64,000 nucleotides of DNA, taken from Chloroflexota bacterium (GTDB lineage: Bacteria > Chloroflexota > UBA11872 > VXOZ01). The stretch is from positions 160,001-224,000 of the forward strand of contig OY760183.1 in assembly GCA_963663275.1 (NCBI GenBank), in the 5' to 3' direction. Positions within the stretch are counted from its first letter, which is position 1. Every line of letters starts with the position of its first letter. The translations under genes and the position numbers were made by a program. Positions 2,887 to 64,000 of this stretch are shown piece after piece. The notes below the pieces were generated by a model that did not search any database, was not told where the DNA came from, and was given only the letters and a program-made list of their open reading frames with translations.

Positions 2887-2908
2887 ATTGTTGGCTGGGT
2901 GCGCGCGG

Positions 2909-3208: not shown

Positions 3209-3450
3209 TGCCGCAATCCTTTCGTGTCTTGGCGGAATCCGCTTGAGCCGGCGGAGCACTTTTCTGCCCGCTCCGCCCTCAGTCTAACCCTCACCCTAAC
3301 CCTCTCCCTCAGGGAGAGGGGACAAGAGCCGGCGCCGTGCCGCGCTGTCTGCCGCGTTGCCTGCCATGTTGTCCGTCGTGTTGCCTCTCGTATTCATCCG
3401 GCAACGGTATGGTTCATCCAGCGACGGTACTGTTGATCCACGTTGCGCAT

Positions 3451-5898: not shown

Positions 5899-5902
5899 GG
5901 CT

Positions 5903-7213: not shown

Positions 7214-7656
7214 CCGTCGCCCGCCTTTCGTGCCAGGTGTGGCCGCGTGTCGCGCCACGCGCAGCCGCCTCTCGCGCCTGGTGTGGCCGCCCCTTGTGCC
7301 AGGTGCGTCCGTGTCCCGTGCCAGGTGTCGCCGCGTCCCGCGCCCTTCACCCCACTATACCGCAAGTACCGGCGGGTCGCATGGCCTTGCGGCCAATTGC
7401 CGGAAGCGCGCTCAGGCTCCCTCTCCCAGGGGGCGACCGTCCGGTGTAGGGGCACGACATGTCGTGCCCCTACACCGGACGGCGCCAATGGCCGGCCGCT
7501 CCCGCGCGTTCGATACGGGCGGCGTCCCTGTGCTACCATTTAGACATCAGGCGCGCCCGGCCGCGGGGGCGCGGCCTACCGGCAGGTAAGGAATCATGCG
7601 GGTACTTTTGGCGCGCCGGCGCGCGGCGCGAACGGCGTCAGAAAGGACGTGGAGAG

Positions 7657-8937
7657 GTGGCCGACCTGGTCTCGGACAACGCGGACGACGTGCCGACCGG
7701 ACTCGAATCTATCGCCCGGCAAGACCCGGCGGTCTACGGCTGGATTCGCAAGGAACATCAGCGGCAGGAAGACCACCTGGAGTTGATCGCATCCGAAAAC
7801 TACACCAGCGCGGCGGTGCGCGCGGCGTGCGGCTCGATTCTCACCAACAAATACGCCGAGGGCTACCCGGGGCGGCGCTACTACGGCGGCTGCGAATACG
7901 TGGATGAGATCGAGCAACTGGCAATCGACCGGGCCAAGGCGCTTTTCGGCGCGGAACACGCCAACGTGCAGCCCTATTCCGGCTCCAACCCCAACGCGGC
8001 GGTCTACCTGGCCATGCTCCAGCCGGGCGCGACGGTGATGGGCATGTCGCTGGCCCAGGGCGGGCACCTGACCCACGGACACCCCAAGAATTTTTCCGGC
8101 CTCGTCTACAACTTCGTGCCCTACGGCGTGAATCTGGATACGGAACGCATCGACTACGACGAGGTGGAGCGCATCGCCCACGAGTGCAAGCCGCGCCTGA
8201 TCGTCGGCGGCGCCACGGCCTACGCGCGCACCATCGACTTCGCCCGCTTGCGCCGGATTGCCGACGCCGTGGACGCGCTCTTCCTGGTGGACATGGCGCA
8301 CATCGCGGGACTGGTGGCCGCGGGCCTGCATCCCAGCCCCGTGCCCCACGCGCACTTCGTGACCTCATCCACCCACAAGACCCTGCGCGGGCCGCGCGGC
8401 GGGCTGATCCTGTGCAAGGAAGAATTCGCCAAGCAGGTGGACGGCGCCGTCTTTCCCGGCCTCCAGGGCGGCCCGTTCATGCACATCATGGCCGGCAAGG
8501 CGGTGGCGTTCGCGGAGGCGATGACGCCGGATTTCAGGGCCTATAGCCAGGCGGTGGTGCACAACGCCCACGCGCTGGCGGAGACCCTGATGGAGCACGG
8601 CCTGCGCGTGGTCTCCGGCGGCACGGATAACCACCTGATGCTGGTGGACTTCGGCAAGGAAGGGCCTTCCGGCAAGGTGGTGGAAGCGGCGCTGGCCAAG
8701 GCGAACATCACCGTGAACAAGAACACGGTGCCCCGGGAGACCCGCTCGCCGTTCGTCACCAGCGGCATTCGCGTTGGCTCGCCGGCGGTCACTACGCGGG
8801 GCATGGGCGCGCCGGAGATGCGACGCATCGGCGCCGGCATCGCCGAGGCCGTGCGCAACCGCAAGGACAAGGCCGCCCTGCAACGGGTGCGGCAGGACGT
8901 GCTCGACCTCTGCGCCGCCTTCCCGGCGCCGGACTAG
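7657..8937 (+). CDS. glyA: Serine hydroxymethyltransferase
   Basis: [22 protein letters not shown] and [12 protein letters not shown] (PLP lysine); GTG start inferred. Confidence 0.97.
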
Positions 8938-8949
8938 GGCGCGCGGCGC

Positions 8950-9705
8950 TTACTCCGCAGGCGGTTCGCCGTCTTTCAGGCGGGCGTCCCGCGCGCGGCG
9001 GACGTGGAAGAGCAGCAGCGAACCGGCCACGGCGGCGTTGAGGGAGGCCACCTTGCCGGCCATGGGGATGCGCACGCGGTAGTCGCACGCCCGCCGCACC
9101 ACCGGCCGCAGGCCCTTCTCCTCGCTGCCCACCACCACCGCCAGCGGCCAATCGTAGTCCGGCGCGTCATAGGGCGTCTCGCCCTCCGGGTCGAGGCCCA
9201 CCACCCACACGCCGCGTTCCTTGTACCAGGCAAGGGTGCGCGCCAGGTTCGTCACGCCGCAGAGCGCCAGATGCTCCACCGCGCCGCTGGACGCCCGGGC
9301 GACGGCGGCGGTCACGCCCGCGCTGCGGTCTTTGGGCAGCGCCACGCCGTGCACGCCCACGGCTTCCGCCGTGCGCAGCAGCGCGCCGAGATTCTGCGGG
9401 TCTTGCAGGTGGTCCAGCGCCAACAGGAATGGGAGTTGCCCCCGCCGCTCCGCCAGCGACAGGGGATAGTCCAGCGGGCGCAGCGCGCGCTCGGGAAAGC
9501 GCGCGGCGACGTTCTGGTGGCGGCCGCTGCGGCAGAGCGCGCCCAACTCCTGCCGCGTGACCGTTTGCGCCGTCGTTCCGCCCGCCCGCGCCAGCCGGAC
9601 GATTTCACCCATGCCTTTCGCGCCCGCCGCGACCCACAGGGCCTCCGGCACGCGCCCGGCGCGCAACGCCTCCCGTACGGGATGGAAACCGAAGAGCAAT
9701 TCCAC
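8950..9705 (-). CDS. rlmB: 23S rRNA Gm2251 2'-O-methyltransferase (TrmH/SpoU family)
   Basis: LDHLQDPQNLGALLRTA, GSEEKGL and SLNAAVA SPOUT motifs. Confidence 0.9.
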   Translation of the reverse strand: MELLFGFHPVREALRAGRVPEALWVAAGAKGMGEIVRLARAGGTTAQTVTRQELGALCRSGRHQNVAARFPERALRPLDYPLSLAERRGQLPFLLALDHLQDPQNLGALLRTAEAVGVHGVALPKDRSAGVTAAVARASSGAVEHLALCGVTNLARTLAWYKERGVWVVGLDPEGETPYDAPDYDWPLAVVVGSEEKGLRPVVRRACDYRVRIPMAGKVASLNAAVAGSLLLFHVRRARDARLKDGEPPAE

Positions 9706-9995
9706 ACGAAAGTCCTTAGGCGTTTCTCATGCTTGCGTCACGGCATAGTATAGAATGAGAGAACGAGCCCGGCTACGCAGGCGCTGTGCCGGGCCTCTTG
9801 CTTGTCACTCTGAACGGAGTGAAGAGTCTCGGCCAGTTACCGGTAGGCCACGTTGTTGCCGGGCGAGAAACCTGGATTCCTCGCTGCGCTCGGAATGACA
9901 GCCGTGCGCGACATAGTGACAGTCGCGCGCGGCATAGTGACGGTCGCGCGCAACACACTAGTGGCATCCGGCCGGGCCGCGCGGAGAGAGACCCG

Positions 9996-10793
9996 ATGAT
10001 CATCGACGTCCACGTGCACATCCGCTCGGAAGCGATGCTCGCCCGCGCGCTGCGCCAGGCGGCGCAACTGGACATGATACTCTGCCTGAACAGCATCAAT
10101 CTGGAGGGCAGCAGTTCGCCCAACTTTCCGTCGCGGCGGTTCGTCTCACGCTGCAACAACCGCACGGCGGCGGTGGCCGCCGCCCACCCGGAGCGCGTCA
10201 TTCCCATGTGGTACCTCAATCCCGCCCACGGCCAATTTGCGGTGGATGAGTTGGAACGGCGGGTTGAGGAACATCGCGGCCCGCAGGGGGTCAAGCTCTG
10301 GACGGCGGTCAAGGCCAACGACCCGCGCGCGGACGGCATCTTCGCGGTCTGCGCCGACCGCCGGCTGCCGGTGCTCCAACACACGTGGCTGGAGGTGACC
10401 GGCAACCTCCCCGGCGAGACCGATCCGTGGGACATGCGCGCCGCCGCCCTACGGCATCCCAACGTGCCCTTCTTCTGGGGGCACGCCAGCGGCGACGTGG
10501 AATACACGGTCAAGCTGGCGGGCGGCCTGCCGAACGTGTATCTGGACATCGGCGGCTGCGAGGCGACCAACGGCTACACGGAGATGCTGGTGAAATACGT
10601 CGGCGCGGAGCACATCGTGCAAGGCAGCGACGGCACCGGCCGCTCTTTCACCTCGCAGTTGGCCAAAGTGTACGCGGCGGACATAGCGCCGGCGGAAAAA
10701 GAGCGGATTCTCTACAAGAACGCCCAGGCCCTCTTCGCGCGGCAGACCTACGGCGATGAGGCTTCCCCTCACCCCCAGGAGACCTTTGCATAA
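9996..10793 (+). CDS. Amidohydrolase_2 family metallohydrolase
   Basis: MIIDVHVH metal motif, VKL, LQH, GH and GSD motifs; the last codons and stop come from a MITE-B end. Confidence 0.8.
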   Translation: MIIDVHVHIRSEAMLARALRQAAQLDMILCLNSINLEGSSSPNFPSRRFVSRCNNRTAAVAAAHPERVIPMWYLNPAHGQFAVDELERRVEEHRGPQGVKLWTAVKANDPRADGIFAVCADRRLPVLQHTWLEVTGNLPGETDPWDMRAAALRHPNVPFFWGHASGDVEYTVKLAGGLPNVYLDIGGCEATNGYTEMLVKYVGAEHIVQGSDGTGRSFTSQLAKVYAADIAPAEKERILYKNAQALFARQTYGDEASPHPQETFA

Positions 10794-10918
10794 CCCCTTC
10801 CCCATCGAGGGGGAAGGTTGGGATGGGGGTGCAAAGGATTGAAAACAGGCTATTTTTAGTTGTAAATGCGGTCTGGATTCCGGCTTTCGCCGGAATGACA
10901 GAGTTATGCAAAGGTCTC
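10779..10918. mobile_element. MITE-B (140 bp; TIR GAGACCTTTGCATAAC; 5-bp TSD CCCAG)
   Basis: Perfect 16-bp TIRs with flanking CCCAG duplication; TIR resembles IS5/IS1106-type ends. Confidence 0.85.
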
Positions 10919-10925
10919 CCCAGGG

Positions 10926-11071
10926 AGAAGGGGGCATTTGAATGTCATTCCGAACGAAGCGCAGCGGAGAGAGGAATCTAGGGCGTTGCCTTGCAAGATC
11001 CTCATTCCTAGATTCCTCGCTCCGCTCGGAATGACACGTGAAGTCGGATGTAGTGTGAATACCCTTGTCAG
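10926..11071 (-). mobile_element. MITE-A diverged copy
   Basis: Inverted match to 20069-20214 including GACACGTGAAGTCGGATGTAG and a CTTGTCAG end. Confidence 0.7.
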
Positions 11072-11223
11072 CCAGCGAGAGAAGGGTCTGCCCGCTTGAC
11101 GGCGTAGGTGACTAAGACGTAGGGAATTCAATGGTAATTTTGGGCAAGATCGTATTGCGCAAGGCATAGTCGTCACATATAACACATAGTCCTCACACGC
11201 AAGGCAGAATCGTCACGCATTCC

Positions 11224-12138
11224 ATGGCTGAACTCGCGGTTACAACCCACCAATTGCGCAAGGTCTACGGCGGCGCGCCGGCCGTGGCGAGCCTGGATCT
11301 AGCCGTGCCCACCGGCGAGGTCTTCGGCTTCCTGGGCCCGAACGGCGCGGGCAAGAGCACCTGCGTCAAGATGCTGCTGGGCCTGGTCTTCCCCACCAGC
11401 GGCGGCGGCACGCTGCTGGGCGCGCCATTGGGCGAGCGCCGCGTCAAGGCCAGGATCGGTTTCTTGCCGGAGCAGTTCCGCTTCCACGAGTGGTTCACCG
11501 CCCGCGAGTTCCTGGATTTTCACGGCCAACTCTACGGCATGAACGCCCAGCGGCGCGCCCGGCGCATCGGCGACGCACTCGCGCTTGTCAATCTCGAACG
11601 CGCCGCCGGTCAGCAACTGCGCACCTTTTCCAAAGGCATGTTGCAGCGCATCGGCATCGCGCAGGCCGTGCTGCACGATCCGGAGTTGATCTTCCTGGAC
11701 GAACCCACCAGCGCCCTGGATCCCATCGGCCGCCGCCTGGTGCGGGACATCATCCGCCAGCTCAAGGCTGAAAAGAAGACGGTCTTTCTCAATTCGCACC
11801 TGCTCTCCGAGGTGGAGGCGGTGTGCGACCGGGTGGCGATCATCGAGCGAGGCGAGGTGGTGCGCGAGGGCACACTGGACGACCTGCTGGCCGCGCGCCG
11901 CCTGCTGGACGTGCGCGCCCGGGGCGTCGGCGAAGCGCTCCTGGAGCGCGTGAAAGCGCGGTGGTCGCTTGCCGAACACGAGGACGAGCGGCTGACCTTG
12001 GCGCTGTCCGACCCTGCCGAAGTGCCGGAGGTAGTGTCGCTCCTGGCCGCCGGCGGAGCCGCCGTGCACCACGTCGCGCTGCGCCACGAAAGCCTGGAAG
12101 ACCTCTTCGTGCGCACCGTAGACGACACCGGCGCATGA
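11224..12138 (+). CDS. ABC-2 type transporter ATP-binding protein
   Basis: GPNGAGKS, FSKGMLQR, LIFLDEPT and NSH motifs. Confidence 0.93.
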   Translation: MAELAVTTHQLRKVYGGAPAVASLDLAVPTGEVFGFLGPNGAGKSTCVKMLLGLVFPTSGGGTLLGAPLGERRVKARIGFLPEQFRFHEWFTAREFLDFHGQLYGMNAQRRARRIGDALALVNLERAAGQQLRTFSKGMLQRIGIAQAVLHDPELIFLDEPTSALDPIGRRLVRDIIRQLKAEKKTVFLNSHLLSEVEAVCDRVAIIERGEVVREGTLDDLLAARRLLDVRARGVGEALLERVKARWSLAEHEDERLTLALSDPAEVPEVVSLLAAGGAAVHHVALRHESLEDLFVRTVDDTGA

Positions 12139-47147: not shown

Positions 47148-49661
47148 CTAGGCCGTTGCCTTCACCCGCTTTTGCAGGGGATGGAGCGCCAGCGCCAGCA
47201 CTTCGCTCACGTTCTCAACCGGATGAAACGCGATGTCCTCGCGCACGTGTTCCGGCACGTCCACCAGGTCTTTCGTGTTCTCCTTGGGCAGGATGATCGT
47301 GCGGATGCCGGCGCGGTGCGCGGCGAGCACTTTCTCCTTCAGGCCGCCGATTGGCAGCACGCGGCCGCGCAGGGTCATCTCGCCGGTCATCGCCACCTCG
47401 CGCCGCACCGCCCGCTCGGAGAGCGCCGAAATGAGGGCCGTGGTGAGCGTAATGCCGGCGCTGGGGCCTTCCTTCGGCACGGCGCCGGCCGGCACGTGGA
47501 TGTGCACGTCCAGCTTCTCCCAGTCCCACTCCCGCAAGCGCAGTTTCTCCGCATGCACCCGGGCGTAGCTGAGCGCGGCGCGACCGGATTCTTTCATCAC
47601 CGCGCCCAGTTTGCCGGTCAGGATCAGCTTGCCCTTGCCCGGCACCAGGGTCACCTCCACGGGGATGATGTCGCCGCCGAACTCGGTCCACACCAGGCCG
47701 GTGGCCGTGCCGACCTGGTCGCTCTCCTCGGCCATGCCGTAGAAGAACTGCGGCGCGCCCAGGTAGGCGTTGAGATTGCGCACGCTCACCGACACCGTCC
47801 CGTTGTCGCCTTCCGCGTGCTTGCGGGCCACCTTGCGGCAAATGGTCGCCACCTGCCGTTCCAGGTTGCGCACGCCGGCCTCGCGGGTGTACTGGCGCAC
47901 GATCTGCCGCAGCGCGCCCGCGGTGAAGCGCAGATTGCGCTGCTTCAAGCCGTGCTCGGCCCGCTGCTTCGGCACGATGTAGCGCGTGGCAATCGGCAGT
48001 TTGTCTTCCTCCGTATAGCCGGGCAACTCGATCACTTCCATGCGGTCGCGCAGGGCAACCGCCAATGTATCTACGGTGTTGCCCGTAGTTATGAAAATAA
48101 CGTTCGAGAGGTCGTAGGGGGCTTCCAGGTAGTGGTCTGAGAAAGCGTAGTTCTGCTCCGGGTCCAGCACCTCCAGCAGGGCCGCGGACGGATCGCCGCG
48201 AAAGTCGGCGCCCATCTTTTCGATCTCGTCCAGCATGAAGACCGGGTTCACCGTGCCCACCTGGCGCATAGCTTGCAGGATGCGCCCCGGCAGCGCGCCC
48301 ACGTAGGTGCGCCGGTGGCCGCGGATTTCCGCCTCGTCCCGGATGCCGCCCAGGGAGATGCGCACGAATTTCCTGCCCAGCGCCTGGGCGATGGAAAGTC
48401 CCAGCGAGGTCTTGCCCACGCCCGGCGGCCCCACGAAGCACAGGATCGGCGTGCGCACGTCGGGCGCCAGTTTGCGCACCGCGATGTATTCCAGGATGCG
48501 TTCCTTCACTTTCGGCAGGCCGTAGTGGTTGGCGTCCAGCACCTTCTTGGCGTGCTCGATGTCCAGGTCGTCCTGGCTCGGCTCGCCCCACGGCAGCGCC
48601 AGCAGCCAATCGAGATAAGTCTGGATCACGCTCACCTCCGGGCTGGCGGTGGGCATCGCCTCCAGGCGATCGAGTTCCTTGTAGGCTTTCTCCTTTACGC
48701 CTTCGGGCAACTCCGTCTCATCCACCCGTTCGCGCAGGGCGGCGATGTCGCTGCTCACCTGGTCGGTCTCGCCCAGTTCCTTGTGAATGAGCTTGAGTTG
48801 CTCGCGCAGGAAGCGTTCGTGCTCCTCGGCGTCGGAGGTAGTGGGCGCGGCGTCCTCGTCCAGCTTGCGCTGCAACGCCAGAATGTCCAACTCGCGCCGC
48901 AGCCGCCGGATGACGTTCTCCACCCGCTTGGCTACGTCCAGTTCCTCCAGCAACTCTTGCTGCACCGGCGTGGTCAGGTCGATCGTCGAGGCGATCAAGT
49001 CCGCCAGCGCGCCGGCCTCGTGGGTGTTGATTGCCTGCACGTAGGCCTCGTCCGGCAGGTCCTTGCTCAGTTCCACGGCCTCCTTGAAGAGGGCCAGCAT
49101 GGCGTCCATCTGCGCCTTGAGCGCCCGGCCGGACGCGGCCGCCGGTTCGACGTCGATGGCCTGCACGCGAATGTGGGGGTCGAGCTGGAGGAAGTGGGTG
49201 ATGGTCAGGCGGCGCTGCCCCTCCACCAGGATGCTCACGCTGCCGTCCGGCATCTTGAGCGTGCGCCGGATGGTGACTTCCACGCCGACGAAGTAGAAAT
49301 CCTCCGGGTTGACGTCGTCGATCGTGGGGTCGCGCTGCGTGACTACGAACAACCGCCGGTCGCCGTCCAGCGCGTTGCTCACGGCGTCCAGGGAGCGGTC
49401 GCGCGCCACGATGAGCGGCGCCGTCATCCCCGGAAAGACCACCTGGTCCCGGATTGCCAGCACCGGCAACTCCACCGGATGGAGCATGGCGTCCATCACG
49501 TCCACCGCGTCCTGGCGGCGGGTAGAGCGCCTCTTCCGCTTCGCGCCGTCACCGTTGGCCGTGTCCGGCTCCGCCGTCGTCGATTCAGTGCGTCCTTCCG
49601 ACGCCGTTCGTTCTTCCGACGCCGTGCGTCTCGTGGACGCCTTCCGTTTGCTTTCCGCCAC
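47148..49661 (-). CDS. lon: ATP-dependent protease La
   Basis: GPPGVGKTS, HRRTYVGALPG, PKEGPSAG (catalytic Ser) and IGGLKEK (catalytic Lys). Confidence 0.97.
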   Translation of the reverse strand: MAESKRKASTRRTASEERTASEGRTESTTAEPDTANGDGAKRKRRSTRRQDAVDVMDAMLHPVELPVLAIRDQVVFPGMTAPLIVARDRSLDAVSNALDGDRRLFVVTQRDPTIDDVNPEDFYFVGVEVTIRRTLKMPDGSVSILVEGQRRLTITHFLQLDPHIRVQAIDVEPAAASGRALKAQMDAMLALFKEAVELSKDLPDEAYVQAINTHEAGALADLIASTIDLTTPVQQELLEELDVAKRVENVIRRLRRELDILALQRKLDEDAAPTTSDAEEHERFLREQLKLIHKELGETDQVSSDIAALRERVDETELPEGVKEKAYKELDRLEAMPTASPEVSVIQTYLDWLLALPWGEPSQDDLDIEHAKKVLDANHYGLPKVKERILEYIAVRKLAPDVRTPILCFVGPPGVGKTSLGLSIAQALGRKFVRISLGGIRDEAEIRGHRRTYVGALPGRILQAMRQVGTVNPVFMLDEIEKMGADFRGDPSAALLEVLDPEQNYAFSDHYLEAPYDLSNVIFITTGNTVDTLAVALRDRMEVIELPGYTEEDKLPIATRYIVPKQRAEHGLKQRNLRFTAGALRQIVRQYTREAGVRNLERQVATICRKVARKHAEGDNGTVSVSVRNLNAYLGAPQFFYGMAEESDQVGTATGLVWTEFGGDIIPVEVTLVPGKGKLILTGKLGAVMKESGRAALSYARVHAEKLRLREWDWEKLDVHIHVPAGAVPKEGPSAGITLTTALISALSERAVRREVAMTGEMTLRGRVLPIGGLKEKVLAAHRAGIRTIILPKENTKDLVDVPEHVREDIAFHPVENVSEVLALALHPLQKRVKATA

Positions 49662-55348: not shown

Positions 55349-58300
55349 ATGGATGAAACTGAAGACACCGCCCAACTCAGCGACCTGGCCGCCGGCATCC
55401 TGCGGCGGCACGACAACCGCGAGCCCGAGGCCAACATCACCAGCGCCGTGCGCCGATTCCTCACCGACACCGGCCTGGTAAGCGAGGCAGACATCCAGGA
55501 GGAGAATCCGCCCACACAAGGTTCGCGCCAGGCCGTAGACCTGCGCGCGCTGGACACCTTCATCGAGTTCAAGCGCCGCGTCGGCCCCGGCGGCATCACG
55601 CCCAACCCCGATTACGTGCGCCAACTCGACGACTACCTGTCGCAGTCCGCGGCCGCGGGCAAGAGCGTGCGCCTGGGCATCCTGACCGACGGTAAGCACT
55701 GGCTGCTGCGCTGGCCCGGCGCCGGGGCGGTGCGCACCGCGCGCCCGTACGCCTTCATCCTCGAATCTCCTGAAAGCGGCGCCGCTCTTTACACCTGGCT
55801 GCGGGACGAGGCCTTGGCCGCCACCCAGCAGACCCAACCCGACCGGCAGAGCATCACGGCGCGTTTCGGGCCGGACAGCCTGCTGTACCAGCGCGACATC
55901 GACACCCTGCGGCAGCTTTACCAGTCTACCGCCGCCAGCGAGACCATCGCCGTCAAGCGCCGCCTCTGGCACAACCTGCTCATGGCGGCCCTGGGCGAGA
56001 TTGCCCGCGGCCGGCAGCAGATGGACGACCTCTTCGTCCGCCACACCTATCTCAGCATGACCATCGGCATGGTGGTGCAGGCCTCGTTTGGCATTGACAT
56101 TGCCGAAGTCGCGGCCAGCGATCCCGCCGCGCTGCTGCACGGCCGCCGCTTCCACAACGCCACCGGCCTGCACGGCATCGTGGAGTCGGACTTCTTTGCC
56201 TGGCCGGCCGAGGTGGAGGGCGGGCTGGCGCTGGTCAAGACCCTGGCGCGGCGCGTGGCGCGGTTCGATTGGACCCAGGCCCCGGCCGACGTGGGCGCGA
56301 TTCTCTACGAAACCGTCATTCCGCCCGACGAGCGCCGCCAACTGGGCGAATACTACACGCCGGACTGGCTGGCGCGGGTGATGGTGCGCGAGTTGGTCGC
56401 CGAACCGCTTGACCAACGGGTGCTGGATCCGGCCTGCGGTTCCGGCACCTTCATCGTGGAAGCCGTGGCGCATTTTTTGGAAGCGGCACGCGCGGCAAAC
56501 CTCGCGCCTGACATAGTTATGGAAAAACTACGGCTGGCGGTGACCGGCATCGACGTGCATCCGGTGGCGGTGCACCTGGCCCGCGCCGCGTGGACGCTGG
56601 CGGCGCGCCCGGCCATCATGGCCGCCGCCCGCGCCGGCTACAGCAATCCCATCTCCGTGCCGGTCTACCTGGGCGACGCGCTGCAACTGCGCTTCCACAC
56701 CGGCGACATGATTGCTGCCAATGAGGTGCGCATCGAGGTTGAAGACGAACAGAACACGACCCTGATCTTCCCGACCTCTCTGGTGGCCCGCGCCGACACC
56801 TTCGACCCGCTGCTGAGCGACGTGGCCGACGCCACCGAACGCGGCGCCGACCCCCGCGTGGCCCTGGACGACCACGCCGTCACCGACCCCTACGAGCGCG
56901 AAACCCTGCGACACACCATCGCCGCAATGCAACGCCTCCACGCCGCCGGCCGCGACCACATCTGGGCCTACTACACCCGCAACCTCGTCCGCCCCGTCGT
57001 CCTCAGCCGCGAAAAAGTGCACGTAATCATCGGCAACCCACCGTGGCTGAACTACAACCAAACTGTGAGCACCCTGCGCACCGCATTGGAAGACCTGAGC
57101 AAGGACCGCTACGGCATCTGGACCGGCGGCCGCTACGCCACCCACCAGGACGTGGCCGGCCTCTTCTTCACCCGCTGCGTTGACCTCTACCTACGAGACG
57201 GCGGCGTGATCGGCATGGTGTTGCCCCACAGCGCGCTGCAAACGGGACAGTACACCAAGTGGCGCACCGGCCTCTGGCGCTCCAAACCACAGGGCCGGGG
57301 CCGCAACCGCACGCCTACGCTCACCTTGTCGGTGGAGTTCGACTACAAGCGGGCCTGGGACTTGGAACGGCTGGAACCCAATACCTTCTTCCCGATACCT
57401 GCCTGTGTTGTCTTTGCGCAGAGCACCGGCGATAGCGGAGTGGCGAACGCCCTAAAGGGAACCGTCGAGCGGTGGCGCGGCAAGACCGGGGCAGACGACA
57501 ACCACAGGGAGCCTATGCCCATCACCGACACATCAGATATTGGCGATTCTCATTACGCCAAGCACGCAAAACAAGGAGCGGTGATTGTACCTCGCTGCCT
57601 GTTCTTCGTGCACGAGGGCGAAAACCCGGCCATCATCCAGGCCGGCCAAACGGTCATTGTTAACCCACGACGAGGAACTTATGACAAGGAGCCGTGGCGC
57701 GGCCTTGACCTTTCACTAATCGCTGGTCAGGCCATTGAGCGTCAGCATGTCTTTGACGTGCACTTGGGAGAGACTGTTGTACCCTACGCTACGCTTGACG
57801 CTCTCAAGGCGGCGCTACCGCTAAAACGGGATGACACCACTCCGCCTGCCGACCCGAACGGAGTGGGCGGTATCCGCCTCGGTGGACTGGATAGACGGAT
57901 GCGCGAACGCTGGCAGACCGCTAGTTCTTTGTGGGAAGAGAACAAAGCGGCAGCCAACGAACTGGACTTGCTGGGTCAGTTAGACTATTACGGCAAACTG
58001 TCTGCACAACTCGAATGGCGGCAGAATCTCTCTACCAGACCCGTTCGCGTAGTCTATAATTCCTCGGGCACGCCGACAGCGGCATTGCTCTGCGACGATG
58101 ACGCTTTGGTTGATTACACGCTGTTTTGGATTGCCTGTAACAATGTCCAAGAAGCCTACTACCTGCTAGCAATCATCAACAGCGATGCCCTGTACGAGGC
58201 CGTAACCCCGTTGATGGCTAAAGGCCAGTTCGGCGCACGCCATCTACAGAAGCACCTCTGGAAACTCCCCATCCTCGCATTCGACCCATCCGTCCCCCTC

Positions 58301-58486
58301 CACGCCGCCATAGCCGACGCCGGCCAAACTGCCGCCACCGCCGCCGCCCACCAACTCGAGCAACTCCGCGCTACCCGCCCCCGACTCACCGTAACCATAG
58401 CCCGTCGCGAACTCCGCAAATGGCTCCGCGCGTCTACCGAAGGCCAAGCCGTTGAGGAAGTGGTCAAGAAGCTATTGAACGGCTAG
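55349..58486 (+). CDS. Type IIG-like fused restriction endonuclease / N6-adenine methyltransferase
   Basis: N-terminal D..IEFK nuclease-like motif and GILTDG; GEYYTP, VLDPACGSGTF (motif I) and IIGNPPW (motif IV). Confidence 0.88.
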   Translation: MDETEDTAQLSDLAAGILRRHDNREPEANITSAVRRFLTDTGLVSEADIQEENPPTQGSRQAVDLRALDTFIEFKRRVGPGGITPNPDYVRQLDDYLSQSAAAGKSVRLGILTDGKHWLLRWPGAGAVRTARPYAFILESPESGAALYTWLRDEALAATQQTQPDRQSITARFGPDSLLYQRDIDTLRQLYQSTAASETIAVKRRLWHNLLMAALGEIARGRQQMDDLFVRHTYLSMTIGMVVQASFGIDIAEVAASDPAALLHGRRFHNATGLHGIVESDFFAWPAEVEGGLALVKTLARRVARFDWTQAPADVGAILYETVIPPDERRQLGEYYTPDWLARVMVRELVAEPLDQRVLDPACGSGTFIVEAVAHFLEAARAANLAPDIVMEKLRLAVTGIDVHPVAVHLARAAWTLAARPAIMAAARAGYSNPISVPVYLGDALQLRFHTGDMIAANEVRIEVEDEQNTTLIFPTSLVARADTFDPLLSDVADATERGADPRVALDDHAVTDPYERETLRHTIAAMQRLHAAGRDHIWAYYTRNLVRPVVLSREKVHVIIGNPPWLNYNQTVSTLRTALEDLSKDRYGIWTGGRYATHQDVAGLFFTRCVDLYLRDGGVIGMVLPHSALQTGQYTKWRTGLWRSKPQGRGRNRTPTLTLSVEFDYKRAWDLERLEPNTFFPIPACVVFAQSTGDSGVANALKGTVERWRGKTGADDNHREPMPITDTSDIGDSHYAKHAKQGAVIVPRCLFFVHEGENPAIIQAGQTVIVNPRRGTYDKEPWRGLDLSLIAGQAIERQHVFDVHLGETVVPYATLDALKAALPLKRDDTTPPADPNGVGGIRLGGLDRRMRERWQTASSLWEENKAAANELDLLGQLDYYGKLSAQLEWRQNLSTRPVRVVYNSSGTPTAALLCDDDALVDYTLFWIACNNVQEAYYLLAIINSDALYEAVTPLMAKGQFGARHLQKHLWKLPILAFDPSVPLHAAIADAGQTAATAAAHQLEQLRATRPRLTVTIARRELRKWLRASTEGQAVEEVVKKLLNG

Positions 58487-58606
58487 CGTAAGCCATTGCC
58501 ACTTGCAACCCCCAATGCGAGCCTGACGGCAGACCAGTGACAAGACCCGCATCTTGTTGGTACATTGCCAGATAATCTGACGGAATTGCTCGAAGGGCGG
58601 CGAGTG

Positions 58607-59041
58607 ATGAATCTTCCATACCCAGAGCCAACGAGCGCCACTGCGACCAAGAAGATGCGCTCCAACCGTCGGGTCGATACGAAACCCGAAGTTGCGCTCA
58701 GGTCATTGCTGCACCGGCGAGGGCTGCGCTTCAGGAAAGATTACCCCATTCGCCTACCGAACGGTCGGACAGTACACCCGGACATCGTCTTCACCAGGAA
58801 GAAACTCGCCATATTCGTGGACGGCTGCTTCTGGCACTCATGCCCCGAACACGGCACGACGCCAAAGACCAACCAGGACTACTGGACTCCCAAGCTGCGG
58901 CAGAATGTCGAGAGGGACAAGAAAACAGACGACGGCTTGCGGACTAATGGATGGCAGGTCGTACGTATATGGGAACACACAGGTTCAGAAGATGCCATAG
59001 CCACGATCCAAGGGGCTCTGGCACAATCTTGCGTCACTTAA
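58607..59041 (+). CDS. vsr: Very short patch repair endonuclease
   Basis: DTKPEVALR, PDIVF, FVDGCFWHSCP and GWQVVRIWE motifs. Confidence 0.93.
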   Translation: MNLPYPEPTSATATKKMRSNRRVDTKPEVALRSLLHRRGLRFRKDYPIRLPNGRTVHPDIVFTRKKLAIFVDGCFWHSCPEHGTTPKTNQDYWTPKLRQNVERDKKTDDGLRTNGWQVVRIWEHTGSEDAIATIQGALAQSCVT

Positions 59042-61046
59042 AGTTTGGATTCATGGCTTTGATGTCTTCTATTGAAATGCTGTTAATTAGGCGGAATACT
59101 CTTCCTGCTTCTGTCTCTCGATCTAGGTAGTCCTCATACGCTTGTAGCGCATTATGGATCAATTCCTCATACCTAATCACTCGAGCCCTTGCTCCTTCAA
59201 GCGTTCTAGCTGACACTTCCCTTCCGCCGGGACTCGACCAATCTGACAATGGCTTGCCGATCAAGCAAATGAATTCTAGGGGTTCGTTAGACCTGCCATG
59301 AGACTCTAATACTTTGGAAACTCCAGTTCGGTACTTGAGGATCTGTTGCACCAATCCACCAGTTTCAAGCGGGCGACTTGCACGCTTCAGTTCGATTATC
59401 ACGTGTTTGTTTCCTGTTGTCGTATAACGAATGTCCAGTCTTGCGAGTCTTTGCTCTTCGGTAAGCGACTGGTAAACCTCGTCGAGCTTCCTAGCGATCT
59501 GGGTTTCCATTCGCGTAGTGTGAGTCGCACGTTCCCAGGATGGGTCCAGCAGCCATAGGTGTTTGTACAGGTGATCCTGAATCACTCTTTCCTTGGCGTC
59601 ATCGTCAATCAGGTCTGTCAGCTTATCTATAACTTCCAGCCGATCTTTGCTGATTTGGTAGTATGCGCTCGCCTCCAAATCATCAAGTTGACTGAAGACG
59701 TCACCGAGTGAACCTAAGTTTTCCGCCGATAGTTGCTCTATGCGATGTAAGAGATGCCGGAACTTCAAACTTTCAAATGCCAGTATTCCGCTGACGAACA
59801 GTTGTCGTTTTTGGCTAACGTCGTCAATTGGCAGTTGGTTGAATTTGCCGAACAATTGCTCTGCTGACCTCTTGTGATCAGGGCTGAGGCTTTCGTACCA
59901 TTCCTTGATTTGAGGAATTGTAACGGCAACTTTCCGTCCCTGATTGTTTCTCAGAACAGTCCAATCGCTTTGTATGGCTTTCAACTCGGACTGGAGTTTC
60001 GATCTCAGAGCCTGGTACCTCGGATCTTCCTCTATGATCCGCTGTCTGCTGGTGGTAGCGATGTCATCTGCATGATCTAGATCGAGGAAGTCAGCGTGGA
60101 TTTCCCCAATGATGTACTTGCTGTAAATTCCGCCTTCGCCAAACTCCTCCAGGATGTCTTCCTGGGCTAACTTCCCTCGTACCATTACTACAATCTTGTT
60201 TATGCTCTCGCCGGTGTCCGAATCTTTCAGTTGACCAGCTTCTTTGACCGTTCCAATCCAGCCGTCGATCGCAAACTTGGCTTCGCCTACTTCGACTTCC
60301 CCTGCGCGTGGCTTTTGGTGCTCCAAATTACTTGCAAGGGTACGAGCCTCTTCTCCACGTGCGCCGAATGTCCACATGTACTGAAGCTTGTCGTAGTAAT
60401 CACGATCCTCAATAGTAATCGGAGCACTGTCCAATTCGATTTCAAAGTGATGCTTAGCTCCTATGATGCTGAATCTGCGAGCGAGCCTGCGTCTCAAAGC
60501 TGAACTGGACCGATGAAGCTGGCGCTTCATATCGGTAAGGAATATCTTGGTACCTTTCGCAATCTCGACTCTCGCAGGATCGACAGGGTCAGGCGAGTAT
60601 TCATTGTCTTCGCTATCCGTAATAGCTTTCTCAATGTCGTCGAGGTTCATTCTGAAACCATGTCGCTTGCCCTGCTTCACACTGTGGACTTCGACGGTCC
60701 TTGCGATAGAGAATAGGGACAGCTTGCCAATCCCCTTTCGTCCCATCACTGGCCTTTGAAACCTTGGCGACCTGGCCCCGTCTTTCTGTTTGCGACGCTC
60801 GTAACCGACCGTCAGGTACCTGTCGTTCGCGTCGTCCACGCTCATGCCGTGTCCGTCGTCCTGGATCACGATCCTGTCGCCCCGAGGGTCGATCTCAATG
60901 ATCACGTGCTCGGCATCAGCATCCCACGCGTTGGCAACTACCTCTGAAAGGACTGCGGGCACGTTGCTGTAGAGCCCTAACCCCAAGTGCTTCAGCACAT
61001 TCAGATCCAGCGTCATCCTATATTTGTGTTCGCTGTCGTCAGTCAT
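59034..61046 (-). CDS. GHKL/MORC-type ATPase with a C-terminal restriction-nuclease-like domain
   Basis: EVVANAWDA, DDGHGM and GRKGIGKLS motifs; C-terminal RLDI..IIELKR; lower GC; ATGA-type overlap region with the C5 MTase gene. Confidence 0.85.
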   Translation of the reverse strand: MTDDSEHKYRMTLDLNVLKHLGLGLYSNVPAVLSEVVANAWDADAEHVIIEIDPRGDRIVIQDDGHGMSVDDANDRYLTVGYERRKQKDGARSPRFQRPVMGRKGIGKLSLFSIARTVEVHSVKQGKRHGFRMNLDDIEKAITDSEDNEYSPDPVDPARVEIAKGTKIFLTDMKRQLHRSSSALRRRLARRFSIIGAKHHFEIELDSAPITIEDRDYYDKLQYMWTFGARGEEARTLASNLEHQKPRAGEVEVGEAKFAIDGWIGTVKEAGQLKDSDTGESINKIVVMVRGKLAQEDILEEFGEGGIYSKYIIGEIHADFLDLDHADDIATTSRQRIIEEDPRYQALRSKLQSELKAIQSDWTVLRNNQGRKVAVTIPQIKEWYESLSPDHKRSAEQLFGKFNQLPIDDVSQKRQLFVSGILAFESLKFRHLLHRIEQLSAENLGSLGDVFSQLDDLEASAYYQISKDRLEVIDKLTDLIDDDAKERVIQDHLYKHLWLLDPSWERATHTTRMETQIARKLDEVYQSLTEEQRLARLDIRYTTTGNKHVIIELKRASRPLETGGLVQQILKYRTGVSKVLESHGRSNEPLEFICLIGKPLSDWSSPGGREVSARTLEGARARVIRYEELIHNALQAYEDYLDRETEAGRVFRLINSISIEDIKAMNPNFK

Positions 61047-62130
61047 GAAATCTCTCTAGGTGCGCGACTATGGACCTGCCAACCGCCTCGCCAAGCTTCA
61101 CGGGAACCGCATTGCCGATCAGCCGCGCCACTGAGGTGATCTGCACGGATTCTCCTGTTGGGACGAACGAGTAATCTCTTGGAAACGTCTGTAGCAGAGC
61201 GCCCTCGCGCAAGGATATAGCGCGGTCCTGGACCGGGTGGCCAAATCGCCCGTTGCCGTAGCCGTGGAACTGGGTGGTGATGGTTGGAGCAGGCCGGTCC
61301 CACTCCATGCGACCGTAGACGCTGGGATAGGTCTTGCCGGATTGCTTGACATGGCAGTCGGCGCGGAGGTCTTGACCGGATGCTGAATCCGCCCAATCCC
61401 GCCAGGTTCCGCCGGGCTTGGAATGCTGGACGCGCGCCAAGTTCGCAGCGGATAGTCCACTTGACTTGTGCAATGGGTCTAATGGGGACGCCTGCCCTGC
61501 TTCGATGTGCGGCAAATGCTGGATCGCATCCCTTACGGTCACGGAGTCACTATCGGCATGTGTCGGCGGGATCATTTGGATAGGGCCGAGCCTGGAGGCT
61601 AGCAACACCAAGCGCCTTCTCGATTGGGGTACACCGTAGTCGGCACAGTGAACTACAGAATAGTCGCAATAGTAGCCAGCGTTGCGCAAAGCGGCTTGGA
61701 ATTCATCGAAGACGGCATATCCCCGCAAGCGTGGGACATTCTCCATGGTGACGATCTCCGGCTGTAGCGCGGTGACCATTTCGCCAAACTTGGGTAGCAA
61801 TTGCCACTGGGCATCGCGTTCGAATCTGCGATTGGAGTAAGACGAAAACGGCTGACAGGGAGCGCAGCCCGCGAGAATCCTGATGACATTCGCCGGAAAC
61901 AGCGACTCGACGAATCGCGGCGATAGCGCGGCCACATCTTTCTCATAGAATGCAGCTTCGACATTTGCTTCGAACGGGTGTTTGCAAGCGGGGTCGATGT
62001 CGATCCCGGCGCGGATCGTGATGCCAGCGTGCTTCATGCCGTAGGAAAGCCCACCGGCGCCGCAAAAGAGGTCTACGGCAACTGGCTGTGAAGTTGGCTG
62101 CGTCTTGTCGATGGGGGCTTCAAGCCACAT
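61039..62130 (-). CDS. dcm: DNA (cytosine-5) methyltransferase
   Basis: DLFCGAGG, APCQPFS, MENVP, YGVPQSRRR and IGNAVP motifs; start 62130 or 62178. Confidence 0.93.
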   Translation of the reverse strand: MWLEAPIDKTQPTSQPVAVDLFCGAGGLSYGMKHAGITIRAGIDIDPACKHPFEANVEAAFYEKDVAALSPRFVESLFPANVIRILAGCAPCQPFSSYSNRRFERDAQWQLLPKFGEMVTALQPEIVTMENVPRLRGYAVFDEFQAALRNAGYYCDYSVVHCADYGVPQSRRRLVLLASRLGPIQMIPPTHADSDSVTVRDAIQHLPHIEAGQASPLDPLHKSSGLSAANLARVQHSKPGGTWRDWADSASGQDLRADCHVKQSGKTYPSVYGRMEWDRPAPTITTQFHGYGNGRFGHPVQDRAISLREGALLQTFPRDYSFVPTGESVQITSVARLIGNAVPVKLGEAVGRSIVAHLERFHD

Positions 62131-62237
62131 ATCTCCGCCGCCAGTTGCTACTTGCGGTCTTGGAACTGCCTTCACCATAGCCGACTCTGTTCACTTTGAG
62201 CAACTTTGGCTTGGAATCCCCACCTGGCGCCGCGCGG

Positions 62238-62822
62238 GTGAAGGACGTCCTGTGGGGGATGCAGGTGGGGGTGACGGTGTTGGCGGTGGTTCTGGGCGCG
62301 ATCTTTGCCGCCTACAAGTGGCAGGTCTTCCGCGAATCCGAGCCGCACCTGACGATCACCCACGAGGTATCCCACCGGCCCGTCGGCGCAAGCTACGTCC
62401 ACATCGCCGTGACCGCGGTTCTGCACAATAGTTCAAAGGTCAAAATGGAATTTCGCGAAGCGTTTTTTCTCATGCAGAAGATCTCCCCGGTGTCGGACGA
62501 GGAAATTGAAGCACTGTACGCTGAGTACGCTCAGGCATTTGAGCAAGGGGAGTACAAGAACATGCAGTGGGATACGCTTGACAAGATTCCCATCACCTGG
62601 GATGAAGACGTAGTGATCGTGGAACCGGGTGAAATGCATCAAGAAACGTGCGAGTTCATCGTGCCGAAGGACGTTAAGTCGGCTATCATATACTCATATT
62701 TCTATAACTCTCGGGTGCCGCAGGTTCCTCAAGGATGGGGCGCGACTACAGTCCACGACATAGCGGCCCGTGATTGCGGGAGTGTCGATGTGGAAGGAGA
62801 TTGCAATGCCAGCCAAGAATGA
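62238..62822 (+). CDS. Hypothetical protein with an N-terminal TM anchor and a predicted beta-rich domain
   Basis: Hydrophobic VGVTVLAVVLGAIFAAY followed by alternating beta-strand patterns; start uncertain (62196/62238/62259). Confidence 0.7.
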   Translation: MKDVLWGMQVGVTVLAVVLGAIFAAYKWQVFRESEPHLTITHEVSHRPVGASYVHIAVTAVLHNSSKVKMEFREAFFLMQKISPVSDEEIEALYAEYAQAFEQGEYKNMQWDTLDKIPITWDEDVVIVEPGEMHQETCEFIVPKDVKSAIIYSYFYNSRVPQVPQGWGATTVHDIAARDCGSVDVEGDCNASQE

Positions 62823-62964
62823 GAAGAAAAGAGGAGATGTCGCCATAAAAGGAGGCGGGCCGAGGCAGAGTCCTCCCAAACGTGAGCCCCCGGTCAAACC
62901 ACCAGGAGCGAGCAAGCCTAAACCCGCGTCCAATCCACCGCAGCAATCCAAGCCGGCCAAGTGA
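62806..62964 (+). CDS. Pro/Lys-rich small peptide 1 (52 aa)
   Basis: AAGGAG RBS; MPAKNEKKRGDVAIKGGGPRQSPPKREPPVKPPGASKPKPASNPPQQSKPAK. Confidence 0.7.
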   Translation: MPAKNEKKRGDVAIKGGGPRQSPPKREPPVKPPGASKPKPASNPPQQSKPAK

Positions 62965-63000
62965 GCGCCGCCGGGCGGCACGGCGGTTGAACCTTGATCG

Positions 63001-63111
63001 ATGCCGTTGGCGTCCAGGCAGGTAGTCGCCTACTACAATTCGAGAGTGCCGCAAGTTCCCCAGGGTTGGGGCGCGACCGCGATTCACGACATAGCTGACC
63101 ATGGTCAATGA
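63001..63111 (+). pseudogene. Orphan fragment or mini-ORF homologous to the C-terminus of the 62238 gene
   Basis: MPLASRQVVAYYNSRVPQVPQGWGATAIHDIADHGQ versus FYNSRVPQVPQGWGATTVHDIA; differences mostly synonymous. Confidence 0.65.
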
Positions 63112-63135
63112 GCAGTAGTGTAAAGGAGGGTTACA

Positions 63136-63279
63136 ATGCCGGCAAGTTCCAAGGTGCAAAGAGAAAGTGTCGGGCCAAAAGGCGGCGGGCCCAAGAAGAG
63201 GCCGCCCAAAGTTCCTTCCAAGAAACCACCGGGAGCAACTCCGCCTAAGCCTCCCCAATCGTCGAAGCCATCCAAGTGA
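63136..63279 (+). CDS. Pro/Lys-rich small peptide 2 (47 aa)
   Basis: AAGGAGG RBS; MPASSKVQRESVGPKGGGPKKRPPKVPSKKPPGATPPKPPQSSKPSK. Confidence 0.7.
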   Translation: MPASSKVQRESVGPKGGGPKKRPPKVPSKKPPGATPPKPPQSSKPSK

Positions 63280-63335
63280 ACGCCAATCGAAGAGGCTGCT
63301 GGAACGAAGGACTCCAGCCGTTCCAATTGGAGAGC

Positions 63336-63701
63336 ATGATGCCGGAGGAAAGAGAAGCCAGCAAGAGCAGGCCGGTCAGGAGTGGAACGGGCCCAAGGGT
63401 TCGACTTGAACAGTTACCGCCTGAGAAACGCATAGCGGGCAAGAGCGGCACGGGTCCGAAAGAGAATCCGCCGCTGGTGAAGACTTCGCGCAAGCCGCCG
63501 GGCGGATTGGGGTTGACCAAAGCCTCGATAAGGTCGACTATGCCAGCCGACGAAGAGTGCACCAATAGAGTGGTCATCAAGAAGGGAACGGGGCCAAAGC
63601 AGAGGCCCCCTATGACTGCTTCCTCAGGTAAACCCCCGGGCGGCCCGCCTAAACCCAAACCCTCATCTCCACCTCACAAGCAACCGCAATCATCCAATTG
63701 A
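63336..63701 (+). CDS. Pro/Lys-rich peptide 3 with three GTGP(R/K) motifs
   Basis: GGAG RBS; SGTGPR, SGTGPK and KGTGPK; internal MPA start at 63540 matches the other peptides. Confidence 0.6.
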   Translation: MMPEEREASKSRPVRSGTGPRVRLEQLPPEKRIAGKSGTGPKENPPLVKTSRKPPGGLGLTKASIRSTMPADEECTNRVVIKKGTGPKQRPPMTASSGKPPGGPPKPKPSSPPHKQPQSSN

Positions 63702-63791
63702 AGGCAGGCAAGCCGCCGAAGGCCGGGGCGCGACGACCCTCCATGCTATTGTGGAAATGTAACCGCACAGTATGCGCTCATGGAGGTTGCA

Positions 63792-63950
63792 ATGCCAGAC
63801 AACGAGAAAGGCAATGAGACACAGGTCGTCATTAAAGGGACAGGACCAAGAACCGCGCCTCCCAAAGCCGATTCTTCCGGGAAACCCCCGCGAGCGAGCA
63901 GGCCTAAACCCGCGTCCAATCCACCGCAGCAATCCAAGCCGGCTAAGTGA
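63792..63950 (+). CDS. Pro/Lys-rich small peptide 4 (52 aa)
   Basis: GGAGG RBS; MPDNEKGNETQVVIKGTGPRTAPPKADSSGKPPRASRPKPASNPPQQSKPAK. Confidence 0.7.
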   Translation: MPDNEKGNETQVVIKGTGPRTAPPKADSSGKPPRASRPKPASNPPQQSKPAK

Positions 63951-64000
63951 GCGGCGCCAGGCGCGTTGCCTCAATCTACCTTGCCCCCATGCCTAAGGCT

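Follow-up and report, generated by a model that had tools for sequence, protein, structure and literature searches.

A family of proline-rich micro-peptides encoded behind an unannotated membrane protein gene in Chloroflexota, and its stacking as cassettes

Results

In the present study, we analyzed a 64,000-nucleotide (nt) stretch of the genome of a Chloroflexota bacterium (assembly GCA_963663275.1, contig OY760183.1, positions 160,001 to 224,000; hereafter referred to as the window), toward the 3' end of which four small open reading frames (ORFs) encoding Pro- and Lys-rich peptides lie in a row behind a truncated membrane protein gene. Judged from their sequences, the four ORFs are real genes of an undescribed micro-protein family. 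The family appears to be restricted to the second position of a two-gene module headed by the gene for the membrane protein, and the array in the window is best described as a stack of cassettes, each composed of a membrane-gene 3' end and a peptide gene. Coordinates given without a prefix refer to the window; G000 denotes the genome carrying it, the other G-numbers denote further genomes, and the L-numbers denote individual loci.

Peptide genes in the window

The genes and gene remnants of the array, with the E values obtained from a profile hidden Markov model (HMM) of the family and lengths in amino acids (aa), are as follows.

62238-62822 (+): membrane protein gene, 5'-truncated, 194 aa from the GTG at 62238
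62806-62964 (+): peptide P1, type A, 52 aa, E 5e-14
63001-63111 (+): remnant of a type-B membrane gene 3' end (HMM positions 186-212), without its own start context
63136-63279 (+): peptide P2, type B, 47 aa, E 6e-10
63336-63701 (+): peptide P3, 121 aa, fusion of a type-D and a type-C unit, three HMM domains
63336-63539 (+): P3a, the type-D unit, with one partial and one full core
63540-63701 (+): P3b, the type-C unit
63719-63760 (+): short remnant of a type-E membrane gene 3' end
63792-63950 (+): peptide P4, type E, 52 aa, final gene of the array, E 4e-15

The initial annotation of this region had proposed four co-oriented ORFs with ribosome-binding sites, and all of them were recovered at the claimed starts, with a GGAG-type Shine-Dalgarno sequence, as read from the DNA, located 6-9 nt upstream of each. 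The start of P1 overlaps the last 17 nt of the membrane gene. As had been described, the peptides are devoid of aromatic residues (no Phe, Trp or Tyr), basic and Pro-rich, with isoelectric points (pI) of 10.4-11.4, Pro contents of 19-28%, and Lys plus Arg contents of 19-26%, and the reported six copies of the motif (K/S)G(G/T)GP(R/K) were distributed as one copy in each of P1, P2 and P4 and three copies in P3. The multi-core layout noticed for P3, which starts with MMP and contains an in-frame internal ATG at 63540, was reproduced as the three HMM domains listed above, and the common 3' end of P1 and P4 was found to extend over 106 nt with 84% identity.

In the 3.53-Mb genome, the pattern G[GTSA]GP[RK] gave 185 six-frame matches, 15 of which were trailed by PP within 1-6 residues, and 6 of these 15 fell inside the 1.1-kb stretch of the array. 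In addition, the family HMM matched only P1-P4 among 70,857 six-frame segments of the genome. On the basis of this motif count and the exclusivity of the HMM, the motif array is beyond chance. An Rfam search of 61900-64000 on both strands gave no match at E up to 0.1, so that a known RNA element was not supported, and a promoter/terminator scan around the array detected nothing above the shuffled expectation. Tandem Repeats Finder reported no repeat in 62600-64000, indicating that the array copies are too diverged for detection in this manner.

Linkage to the membrane protein gene and distribution

When the single membrane protein of the window was used as a query, 9 of 401 genomes of the phylum gave a match, G000 included, as did 7 of the 11 other genomes of the genus, and a Pro/Lys-rich peptide gene was located directly downstream at all nine homologous loci fetched. 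We then collected 73 further loci from species-representative genomes, all titled Chloroflexota, Chloroflexi or Dehalococcoidia metagenome-assembled genomes. The first HMM, built from 15 peptides, matched 55 of the 73 loci, and the second-round HMM matched 67 of them with 80 matches in total. All the downstream peptides were encoded on the strand of the membrane gene just 3' of it, and the sole match outside that position (L080) followed a second membrane paralogue. As for the six loci lacking an HMM match, candidates were recognized by eye in four (L061, L064, L077 and L082), one was doubtful (L053), and one was broken (L084). The initial suggestion that the peptides are partners of the upstream membrane protein was thus strengthened by this conserved, same-strand linkage (9/9 and 67/73 loci), and the peptide family, as far as its sequences can be recognized, is confined to the second position of the two-gene module. 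Other than the membrane gene common to the loci, the most frequent neighboring families were an ABC transporter (14/73) and a Type IIG enzyme (13/73).

A profile query for the membrane gene identified it in 18 of the 98 genomes of the class, namely in 11 of 16 genomes of the genus and 6 of 9 of one other genus, with none in the 18 remaining genera. Such a patchy distribution suggests an accessory module. Frameshifts interrupt the membrane gene in G318 and G452, remnants of it are left in G197, and in G000 it is truncated, with the adjacent peptide ORFs intact in all four; G451 was also among the genomes with broken copies. The usual site of the module in the genus lies between an ABC-2 permease gene and a ceramidase-like gene. 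In G000, this site (C1 2,072,766-2,075,167) was found to lack the module and to carry the permease gene in two tandem copies, and a fragment encoding 65 residues of the ceramidase-like protein was located ~8 kb away (C1 2,083,561-2,083,755).

Conserved features of the peptide family

The peptides of the family are ~40-65 residues long, intrinsically disordered and strongly basic; across 80 peptides, the median pI was 10.8 and the median charge +7.5, with a pI above 9 in 74 of them and a Met-Pro start in 35. An alignment of 61 peptides revealed a conserved center, consisting of a short hydrophobic stretch and the core, flanked by variable sequences at both ends. The core consensus can be written as [VI]x[IV]KG-x-G-P-[RK]-x-x-P-P-[KR], followed by exactly six residues and then K-P-P-G, in which P19, P23, K31 and P32 of the alignment were nearly invariant; across the 61 peptides, the residue before the first Pro was G or A (G-x-G/A-P). 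The spacing between the two motif halves was exactly 6 residues in 48 of the 56 motif pairs.

Purifying selection, for which the initial annotation had proposed a comparison of nonsynonymous and synonymous substitution rates (dN/dS), was borne out by the peptide orthologue pairs, the dN/dS values of which ranged from 0.11 to 0.26, as compared with 0.18-0.19 for the membrane gene over the same species pairs. Individually, P1 showed 71% identity to the G188 peptide (dN/dS 0.17-0.22), P2 70% identity to the first peptide of G080 (0.11-0.26), and P4 65% identity to the first peptide of G450 (0.24). These values indicate that the peptide frame is coding and constrained. The type-D unit of P3 shared 44% identity with the second peptide of G080 and its type-C unit 55% with the G134 peptide, and the P3a and P3b pairs gave dN/dS values of 0.41-0.48.

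Multi-core forms were also encountered at other loci. The peptide gene at L063:6687-7028 contains three in-frame 114-nt repeats with 91% matches and thereby encodes a three-core peptide of 126 aa, two-core ORFs were present at nine others (L022, L028, L031-L033, L044, L080, L081 and L083), and two separate peptide genes lay at 13 of the 67 loci. Furthermore, a 203-aa ORF at L075:6889-7497 (+), corresponding to L007:558-1223 in genome G318, was found to carry an N-terminal core fused to an XkdF-like Peptidase_S78_2 domain (48 bits vs a cut-off of 24). This ORF is positioned directly after a module with a frameshifted membrane gene.

Gene callers mostly miss the peptides, as 23 called proteins matched the peptide profile vs 422 called partner proteins. 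The peptide profile gave no match to PDB sequences at E up to 1, the ESM Atlas yielded no usable match for the peptide, and the peptides gave no match in Pfam, NCBIfam or PADLOC, toxin-antitoxin (TA) families included.

Cassette structure of the array

The peptides of the genus fall into five types, all of which are present in the window array.

Type A: P1; peptides of G278 and G188
Type B: P2; peptides of G080 and G318
Type C: P3b; peptides of G134, G143, G449 and G197
Type D: P3a; peptides of G451 and G452, and the second position in G080 and G450
Type E: P4; first peptide of G450

Between the peptide genes, pieces of membrane gene are still recognizable. The remnant at 63001-63111 was matched by the membrane HMM (E 1.6e-4 to 2e-6), its tail matched the type-B gene of G080, and a direct repeat with 76% DNA identity connects 62702-62772 with 63033-63103. 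The short remnant at 63719-63760 is the third copy of direct repeat D3 (72% identity), and, when translated in frame 2, it is similar to the C-terminal end of the membrane protein of G450. The remnants preceding P2 and P4 thus match the cognate membrane type from other species. Likewise, P1 and P2 were closer to peptides of other genomes than to the copies in their own array (71% vs 62% and 70% vs 60%, respectively), with small margins for P4 (65 vs 62), P3b (55 vs 53) and P3a (44 vs 43). Two-cassette arrays with remnants were also present in G080 and G450. All these features indicate that the array is a stack of cassettes, each contributing a membrane-gene 3' end and a peptide gene.

The assembly of the array was reproduced, at low depth, in independent contigs from another study's sponge-metagenome runs, which span the P1-P2-P3 junctions with 90-97% identity. 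A contig of run X4, likewise of low depth, joins a P1-like 3' end straight to the flank following P4 and thus represents an allele without the inner cassettes. In a contig of run X3, 74 nt over the start of P1 (62782-62857) are replaced by 73 other letters; the N-terminal half of an otherwise P1-like gene therefore differs in related strains.

Properties of the membrane protein

Intact members of the membrane protein family consist of ~215 aa and comprise two N-terminal transmembrane helices followed by an acidic, aromatic-rich, ApaG-like beta-sandwich. Two transmembrane segments were predicted in 62 of 66 family members, and the model of an intact homologue built with AlphaFold2 (AF2) displayed two N-terminal helices (predicted local distance difference test score, pLDDT, 77.5). 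In the AF2 model of the window protein (pLDDT 88.5, predicted TM-score 0.73), one remaining transmembrane helix (residues 2-33) is followed by the sandwich (residues 38-174), which is composed of seven to eight strands with one inserted helix. The soluble domain is acidic (median pI 4.8 and charge -13 across 67 sequences) and contains Trp, Tyr and Phe at invariant or nearly invariant positions, and the last ~60 residues of the protein co-vary with the peptide type. The Lys plus Arg count was 2.27 for the N-terminus and 2.13 following helix 2, as compared with 1.32 for the 12-residue loop, weakly favoring an orientation with both termini inside, i.e., with the sandwich in the cytoplasm within reach of a leaderless peptide. 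The sandwich thus probably faces the cytoplasm.

The family is large, with 422 unnamed clusters at 90% identity and 1,687 at 50% identity, 1,012 of the latter at E 1e-10 or better. The membrane protein belongs to no family of Pfam (E up to 0.1), NCBIfam or PADLOC. Among solved folds, ApaG/DUF525 and the luminal domain of TMEM106B gave the best Foldseek matches (E 2e-5 to 3e-4; TM-score by target 0.53-0.72), and an exhaustive structural aligner ranked sandwich domains of GH2 first (Z 11.7), with ApaG, Spo0M, IPI and TMEM106B at Z ~10 (9.9-10.6 for ApaG/DUF525 and TMEM106B/LEA-2-like domains). The predicted structure is therefore a generic immunoglobulin (Ig)/fibronectin type III-like sandwich, and the modeled fold as such carries no functional label. 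A cupin-like metal site within EPGExHxE was considered and dropped, since the fold matches were Ig-like and not cupin. A search of viral structures gave weak matches, with TM-scores of at most 0.49, to uncharacterized transmembrane/Ig-like phage proteins. In a search for longer or fused forms, one match with tRNA-synthetase domains was obtained, which is probably a gene-call fusion, and one alignment scanned for a distant subfamily in metagenome contigs yielded no confirmed locus.

P0277 (307 aa), a distant homologue, carries a C-terminal Pro/Arg/Lys-rich tail fused to the sandwich, and its relatives P0238 and P0267 have acidic, Thr/Glu-rich tails instead. The fusions of L075 and P0277, one case each, would fit a portable docking motif.

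Genomic neighborhood

The genes upstream of the module in the window, together with the point at which homology to the membrane gene begins, are as follows.

55349-58486 (+): Type IIG restriction enzyme-methyltransferase, 1045 aa (Pfam N6_Mtase and Eco57I; PADLOC REase_MTase_IIG, 5e-62)
58565-59041 (+): Vsr very-short-patch endonuclease (Pfam Vsr, 1.4e-17; PADLOC Vsr)
59034-61046 (-): BbrUII/HgiDII-family type II restriction enzyme with a GHKL ATPase N-terminus (NCBIfam NF050001, 811 bits vs a cut-off of 550; PADLOC REase_II, 9e-103)
61039-62178 (-): C5 cytosine DNA methyltransferase, partner of the restriction enzyme (Pfam DNA_methylase, 1.5e-52; PADLOC MTase_II/DrmMII)
62228 (strand not assigned): breakpoint, start of membrane-gene homology, the first transmembrane helix being missing upstream

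At this breakpoint, the tblastn alignment begins at residue 31 of the intact homologue and the HMM alignment at position 31 of 214, and contigs of runs X1 and X3 continue upstream of 62228 into sequence encoding the end of helix 1. Taken together, these alignments and contigs point to insertion of the Vsr/restriction/methylase cassette between the Type IIG gene and the module, with removal of the first helix, and the Type IIG gene is probably the original upstream neighbor of the module. Further upstream, an 836-aa protein is encoded at 47148-49661 (-), the C-terminus of which is BrxL-like (Lon-type) according to PADLOC (4e-15); this protein might simply be a conventional Lon protease.

The initial annotation had placed the array beside a defence island, and this placement gained support from other genomes, since an orthologue of the Type IIG enzyme (60-76% identity to that of the window) was located within 6 kb upstream of the module at 13 other loci. 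Restriction/modification genes were the immediate upstream neighbors at 19 of 72 loci, comprising 11 Type IIG-like genes, all co-oriented, 3 N4/N6 methyltransferases, 3 GmrSD-like genes and 2 HmaC genes. At L072 and L073 (about 2400-12000), the module is situated between HmaC and HmaB within an Hma defence locus, and further downstream lies a gene whose product matches HEC-09, which is among the published Hma-embedded candidates.

On the other side, the array does not continue past the window, as had been thought possible. The next gene (64075-64857, corresponding to L087:175-957, -) is convergent and encodes a PhyH-family dioxygenase (Pfam 3.8e-27), beyond which genes for a retropepsin-like protease, oxidoreductases, a sulfatase and an aminotransferase were found. 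X-Pro-Gly and Lys sites, which are targets of hydroxylases, abound in the peptides, and the PhyH gene was not found beside the module at other loci. The protease, a 149-aa retropepsin-like aspartic protease (gag-asp_proteas, Asp_protease_2, RVP), is encoded ~1.5 kb past the window (L087:1527-1976, +) and is preceded by a 161-aa ORF of no family.

Discussion

The features described above can be accommodated in a model in which the module forms a membrane-tethered receptor/ligand pair and the peptide core docks on the cytoplasmic beta-sandwich. We infer such binding from the strict linkage of the two genes, their 17-nt overlap in the window and the opposite charges of their products, from the rigidity of the bipartite motif, as would be expected of a linear motif read by a folded surface, and from the aromatic-rich surface of the sandwich, the last ~60 residues of which change together with the peptide type. 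A labile peptide might then restrain the membrane protein according to an effector-plus-antidote logic; the persistence of intact peptide genes beside broken membrane genes suits a harmful membrane protein with the peptide as its antidote and argues against the reverse. The pair would travel as an accessory cassette of Type IIG, Hma, and methyltransferase plus helicase loci. In G000, a Vsr/HgiDII-type restriction-modification cassette has separated the module from the Type IIG gene and deleted the first helix, and recombination has stacked cassettes of membrane-gene 3' end and peptide behind the damaged gene. Such stacking has brought together in one array five types that occur singly in sister species.

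Taken as a whole chain, i.e., a sandwich effector gated by a polyproline peptide and serving as an accessory of methylation-based defence loci, this model is tentative, and we regard it as possible rather than probable. Several observations weigh against it. The fold matches of the sandwich are only generic (ApaG, TMEM106B and GH2 domains), and Cap15, a membrane-bound defence effector compared below, was not among the fold matches listed, nor did the membrane protein gain a PADLOC match. Viral contigs yielded no relative of the membrane protein. For the combination of a broken membrane gene with intact peptides, there are only four examples, and the target that the peptide gene offers to mutation is four-fold smaller. 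As for the defence context, ~50 of the 72 upstream neighbors are metabolic, PADLOC matches were no more frequent in the adjacent downstream gene (10/73) than 4-6 kb away (10/64), and the 13 Type IIG links involve one orthologous enzyme and may thus reflect a single ancestral linkage. Finally, two orphan type-D copies (G450b and G080b) gave a dN/dS of 0.85, suggesting that stacked copies may be decaying.

These orphan copies lead to the view that P2, P3 and P4 are functionless recombination relics and that only a peptide beside an intact membrane gene matters. The accidental-looking two-unit fusion in P3, with its relatively high dN/dS for both units, the X4 allele devoid of the inner cassettes and the truncation of the membrane gene itself would be in line with this view. 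In contrast, all four ORFs retain a start codon, a Shine-Dalgarno sequence, the reading frame and both motifs, P2 and P4, paired with orthologues that adjoin a membrane gene, give dN/dS values of 0.11-0.26, and arrays recur in G080 and G450 as do pairs of peptide genes at other loci (13/67). We therefore consider the relic explanation somewhat unlikely, though one to be taken seriously.

It is also conceivable that the membrane protein is a housekeeping or stress-related scaffold, with the peptide as a multivalent polyproline ligand or chaperone-like partner, and that the restriction-modification neighbors merely mark insertion-prone sites. The predominance of metabolic upstream neighbors, the usual genus site between the ABC-2 permease and ceramidase-like genes, the lack of PADLOC enrichment beside the module and the potentially single origin of the Type IIG link are all compatible with such a scaffold. 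However, the module is patchy (18/98 class genomes) and frequently decays (G318, G452, G197, G451 and G000), it is embedded inside Hma operons, and its alleles are polymorphic and stacked, which is atypical of housekeeping genes. On balance, the scaffold explanation appears unlikely.

Returning to the gated-effector model, a more elaborate version would be a two-component, cell-autonomous switch, in which a bipartite polyproline "key" silences the effector, allelic lock-and-key types circulate among related symbionts, and cells collect keys of all types beside methylation-based defence loci, where these would serve as a repertoire for immunity or against addiction. We offer this version as speculation and deem it quite doubtful. 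Three other functions of the peptide were considered and dropped, namely DNA binding in the manner of SPKK or AT-hook motifs, elongation factor P-dependent stalling at PPG/PPK, which leaves the conserved flanks and the fixed spacing unexplained, and mimicry of eukaryotic SH3/WW ligands directed at a sponge host, as no secretion signal is present.

With the polarity reversed, the basic peptide would be the harmful component, binding nucleic acids or ribosomes, and the acidic membrane domain would sequester it. The complementary charges, the Pro/Arg/Lys-rich composition, with its possible resemblance to proline-rich antimicrobial peptides, and the order of a larger neutralizer gene followed by a small gene, as in classic antitoxin-toxin operons, might be taken in its favor. 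Nevertheless, four genomes carry intact peptide genes behind a broken membrane gene, one of them with four peptide genes, and with the membrane protein as the sole antidote such genomes could not be viable. We regard the reverse polarity as very improbable.

Ribosomally synthesized and post-translationally modified peptide (RiPP) precursors have a conserved leader and a variable core, the reverse of the pattern observed here. The initially suggested RiPP-like role, taken here to include a part of the membrane protein in maturation or export, is extremely improbable. The multi-core ORFs (P3, L063 and nine others) and the dioxygenase and retropepsin-like protease genes just past the window speak in its favor. 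Against it, no neighbor family besides the membrane gene occurs in more than 14 of the 73 loci, scans of the flanking genes on both sides and of the next window showed no known RiPP enzyme, peptidase or exporter domain that recurs, the PhyH gene, which is convergent, was not found at the other loci, the conserved part is the central motif rather than a leader, the peptides lack Cys or Ser/Thr patterns, and the partner is a plain beta-sandwich.

Micro-proteins of ~50 residues are routinely missed. The peptides described here make up an entire family, characterized by a sharply defined linear motif, obligatory pairing with a partner, the existence of allelic types and the stacking of cassettes; the partner family, for its part, is large (1,687 clusters at 50% identity) and entirely unannotated. 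Should the peptide gate a membrane effector, the module would represent a new design principle for toxin/antidote or defence systems and a natural model of bacterial polyproline-motif recognition. On a conservative reading, it is a gene pair worthy of a name in Chloroflexota genomes, and it indicates that the stacking of orphan cassettes is not confined to secreted polymorphic toxins.

Comparison with known systems

In the databases and literature searched, neither gene was described by a family of Pfam, NCBIfam or PADLOC, a solved structure or a paper. Payne et al. (bioRxiv 10.1101/2024.01.29.577857) used an "embedded" position to nominate defence genes, and the placement of the module between HmaC and HmaB at two loci, with HEC-09 downstream, resembles that of their candidates. 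The module, however, matches no HEC or PDC model in PADLOC 2.0.0. The words transmembrane, peptide and proline are absent from the main text of the preprint, the supplements of which might list the membrane protein among unnamed families.

ApaG/DUF525 and TMEM106B/LEA-2-like domains are the best structural matches of the soluble domain, but the sequence identity is 6-10% and there is no Pfam DUF525 match. Since GH2 domains, at Z 11.7, score at least as well, what is in common with ApaG and TMEM106B is limited to the general fold. To our knowledge, ApaG itself has no established function.

The antitoxins of type II TA pairs are disordered and labile. The module resembles such pairs in its translationally coupled genes, its small disordered partner, its patchy distribution, and the decay of the presumed toxin gene with survival of the partner. 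It differs from them in that neither gene belongs to a TA family in Pfam, NCBIfam or PADLOC and that the peptide has no DNA-binding fold.

Cap15-type effectors of CBASS, the antiphage signaling systems based on cyclic oligonucleotides, possess two N-terminal transmembrane helices and a C-terminal beta-barrel that senses a ligand (PMC10419184). In the features of Cap15 covered by that source, the similarity concerns size, the layout of two transmembrane helices plus a small all-beta ligand-binding domain, and occurrence in defence loci. In contrast, there is no cyclase among the immediate neighbors of the module, and its putative ligand is a gene-encoded peptide rather than a nucleotide.

The arrangement of the array is most readily compared with the orphan cdiA-CT/cdiI and Rhs-CT/rhsI arrays of polymorphic toxin systems (Poole et al. 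2011, PMC3150448). The main protein here is much smaller, at ~215 aa, and no secretion, delivery, Rhs, filamentous-haemagglutinin or toxin domain was found in it; the cassette-variable part corresponds to the last ~60 residues of the sandwich, and a polyproline peptide of 50 aa, disordered in nature, takes the place of a folded immunity protein as the partner. Nonetheless, as far as the arrays are described in the portions of that paper drawn on here, the two share an organization in which a main gene is followed by stacked modules of a 3' fragment and a small partner gene, the fragments lack start signals and the small genes retain theirs, the orphans are closer to the modules of other strains than to their neighbors, and deletion variants reload or remove cassettes.

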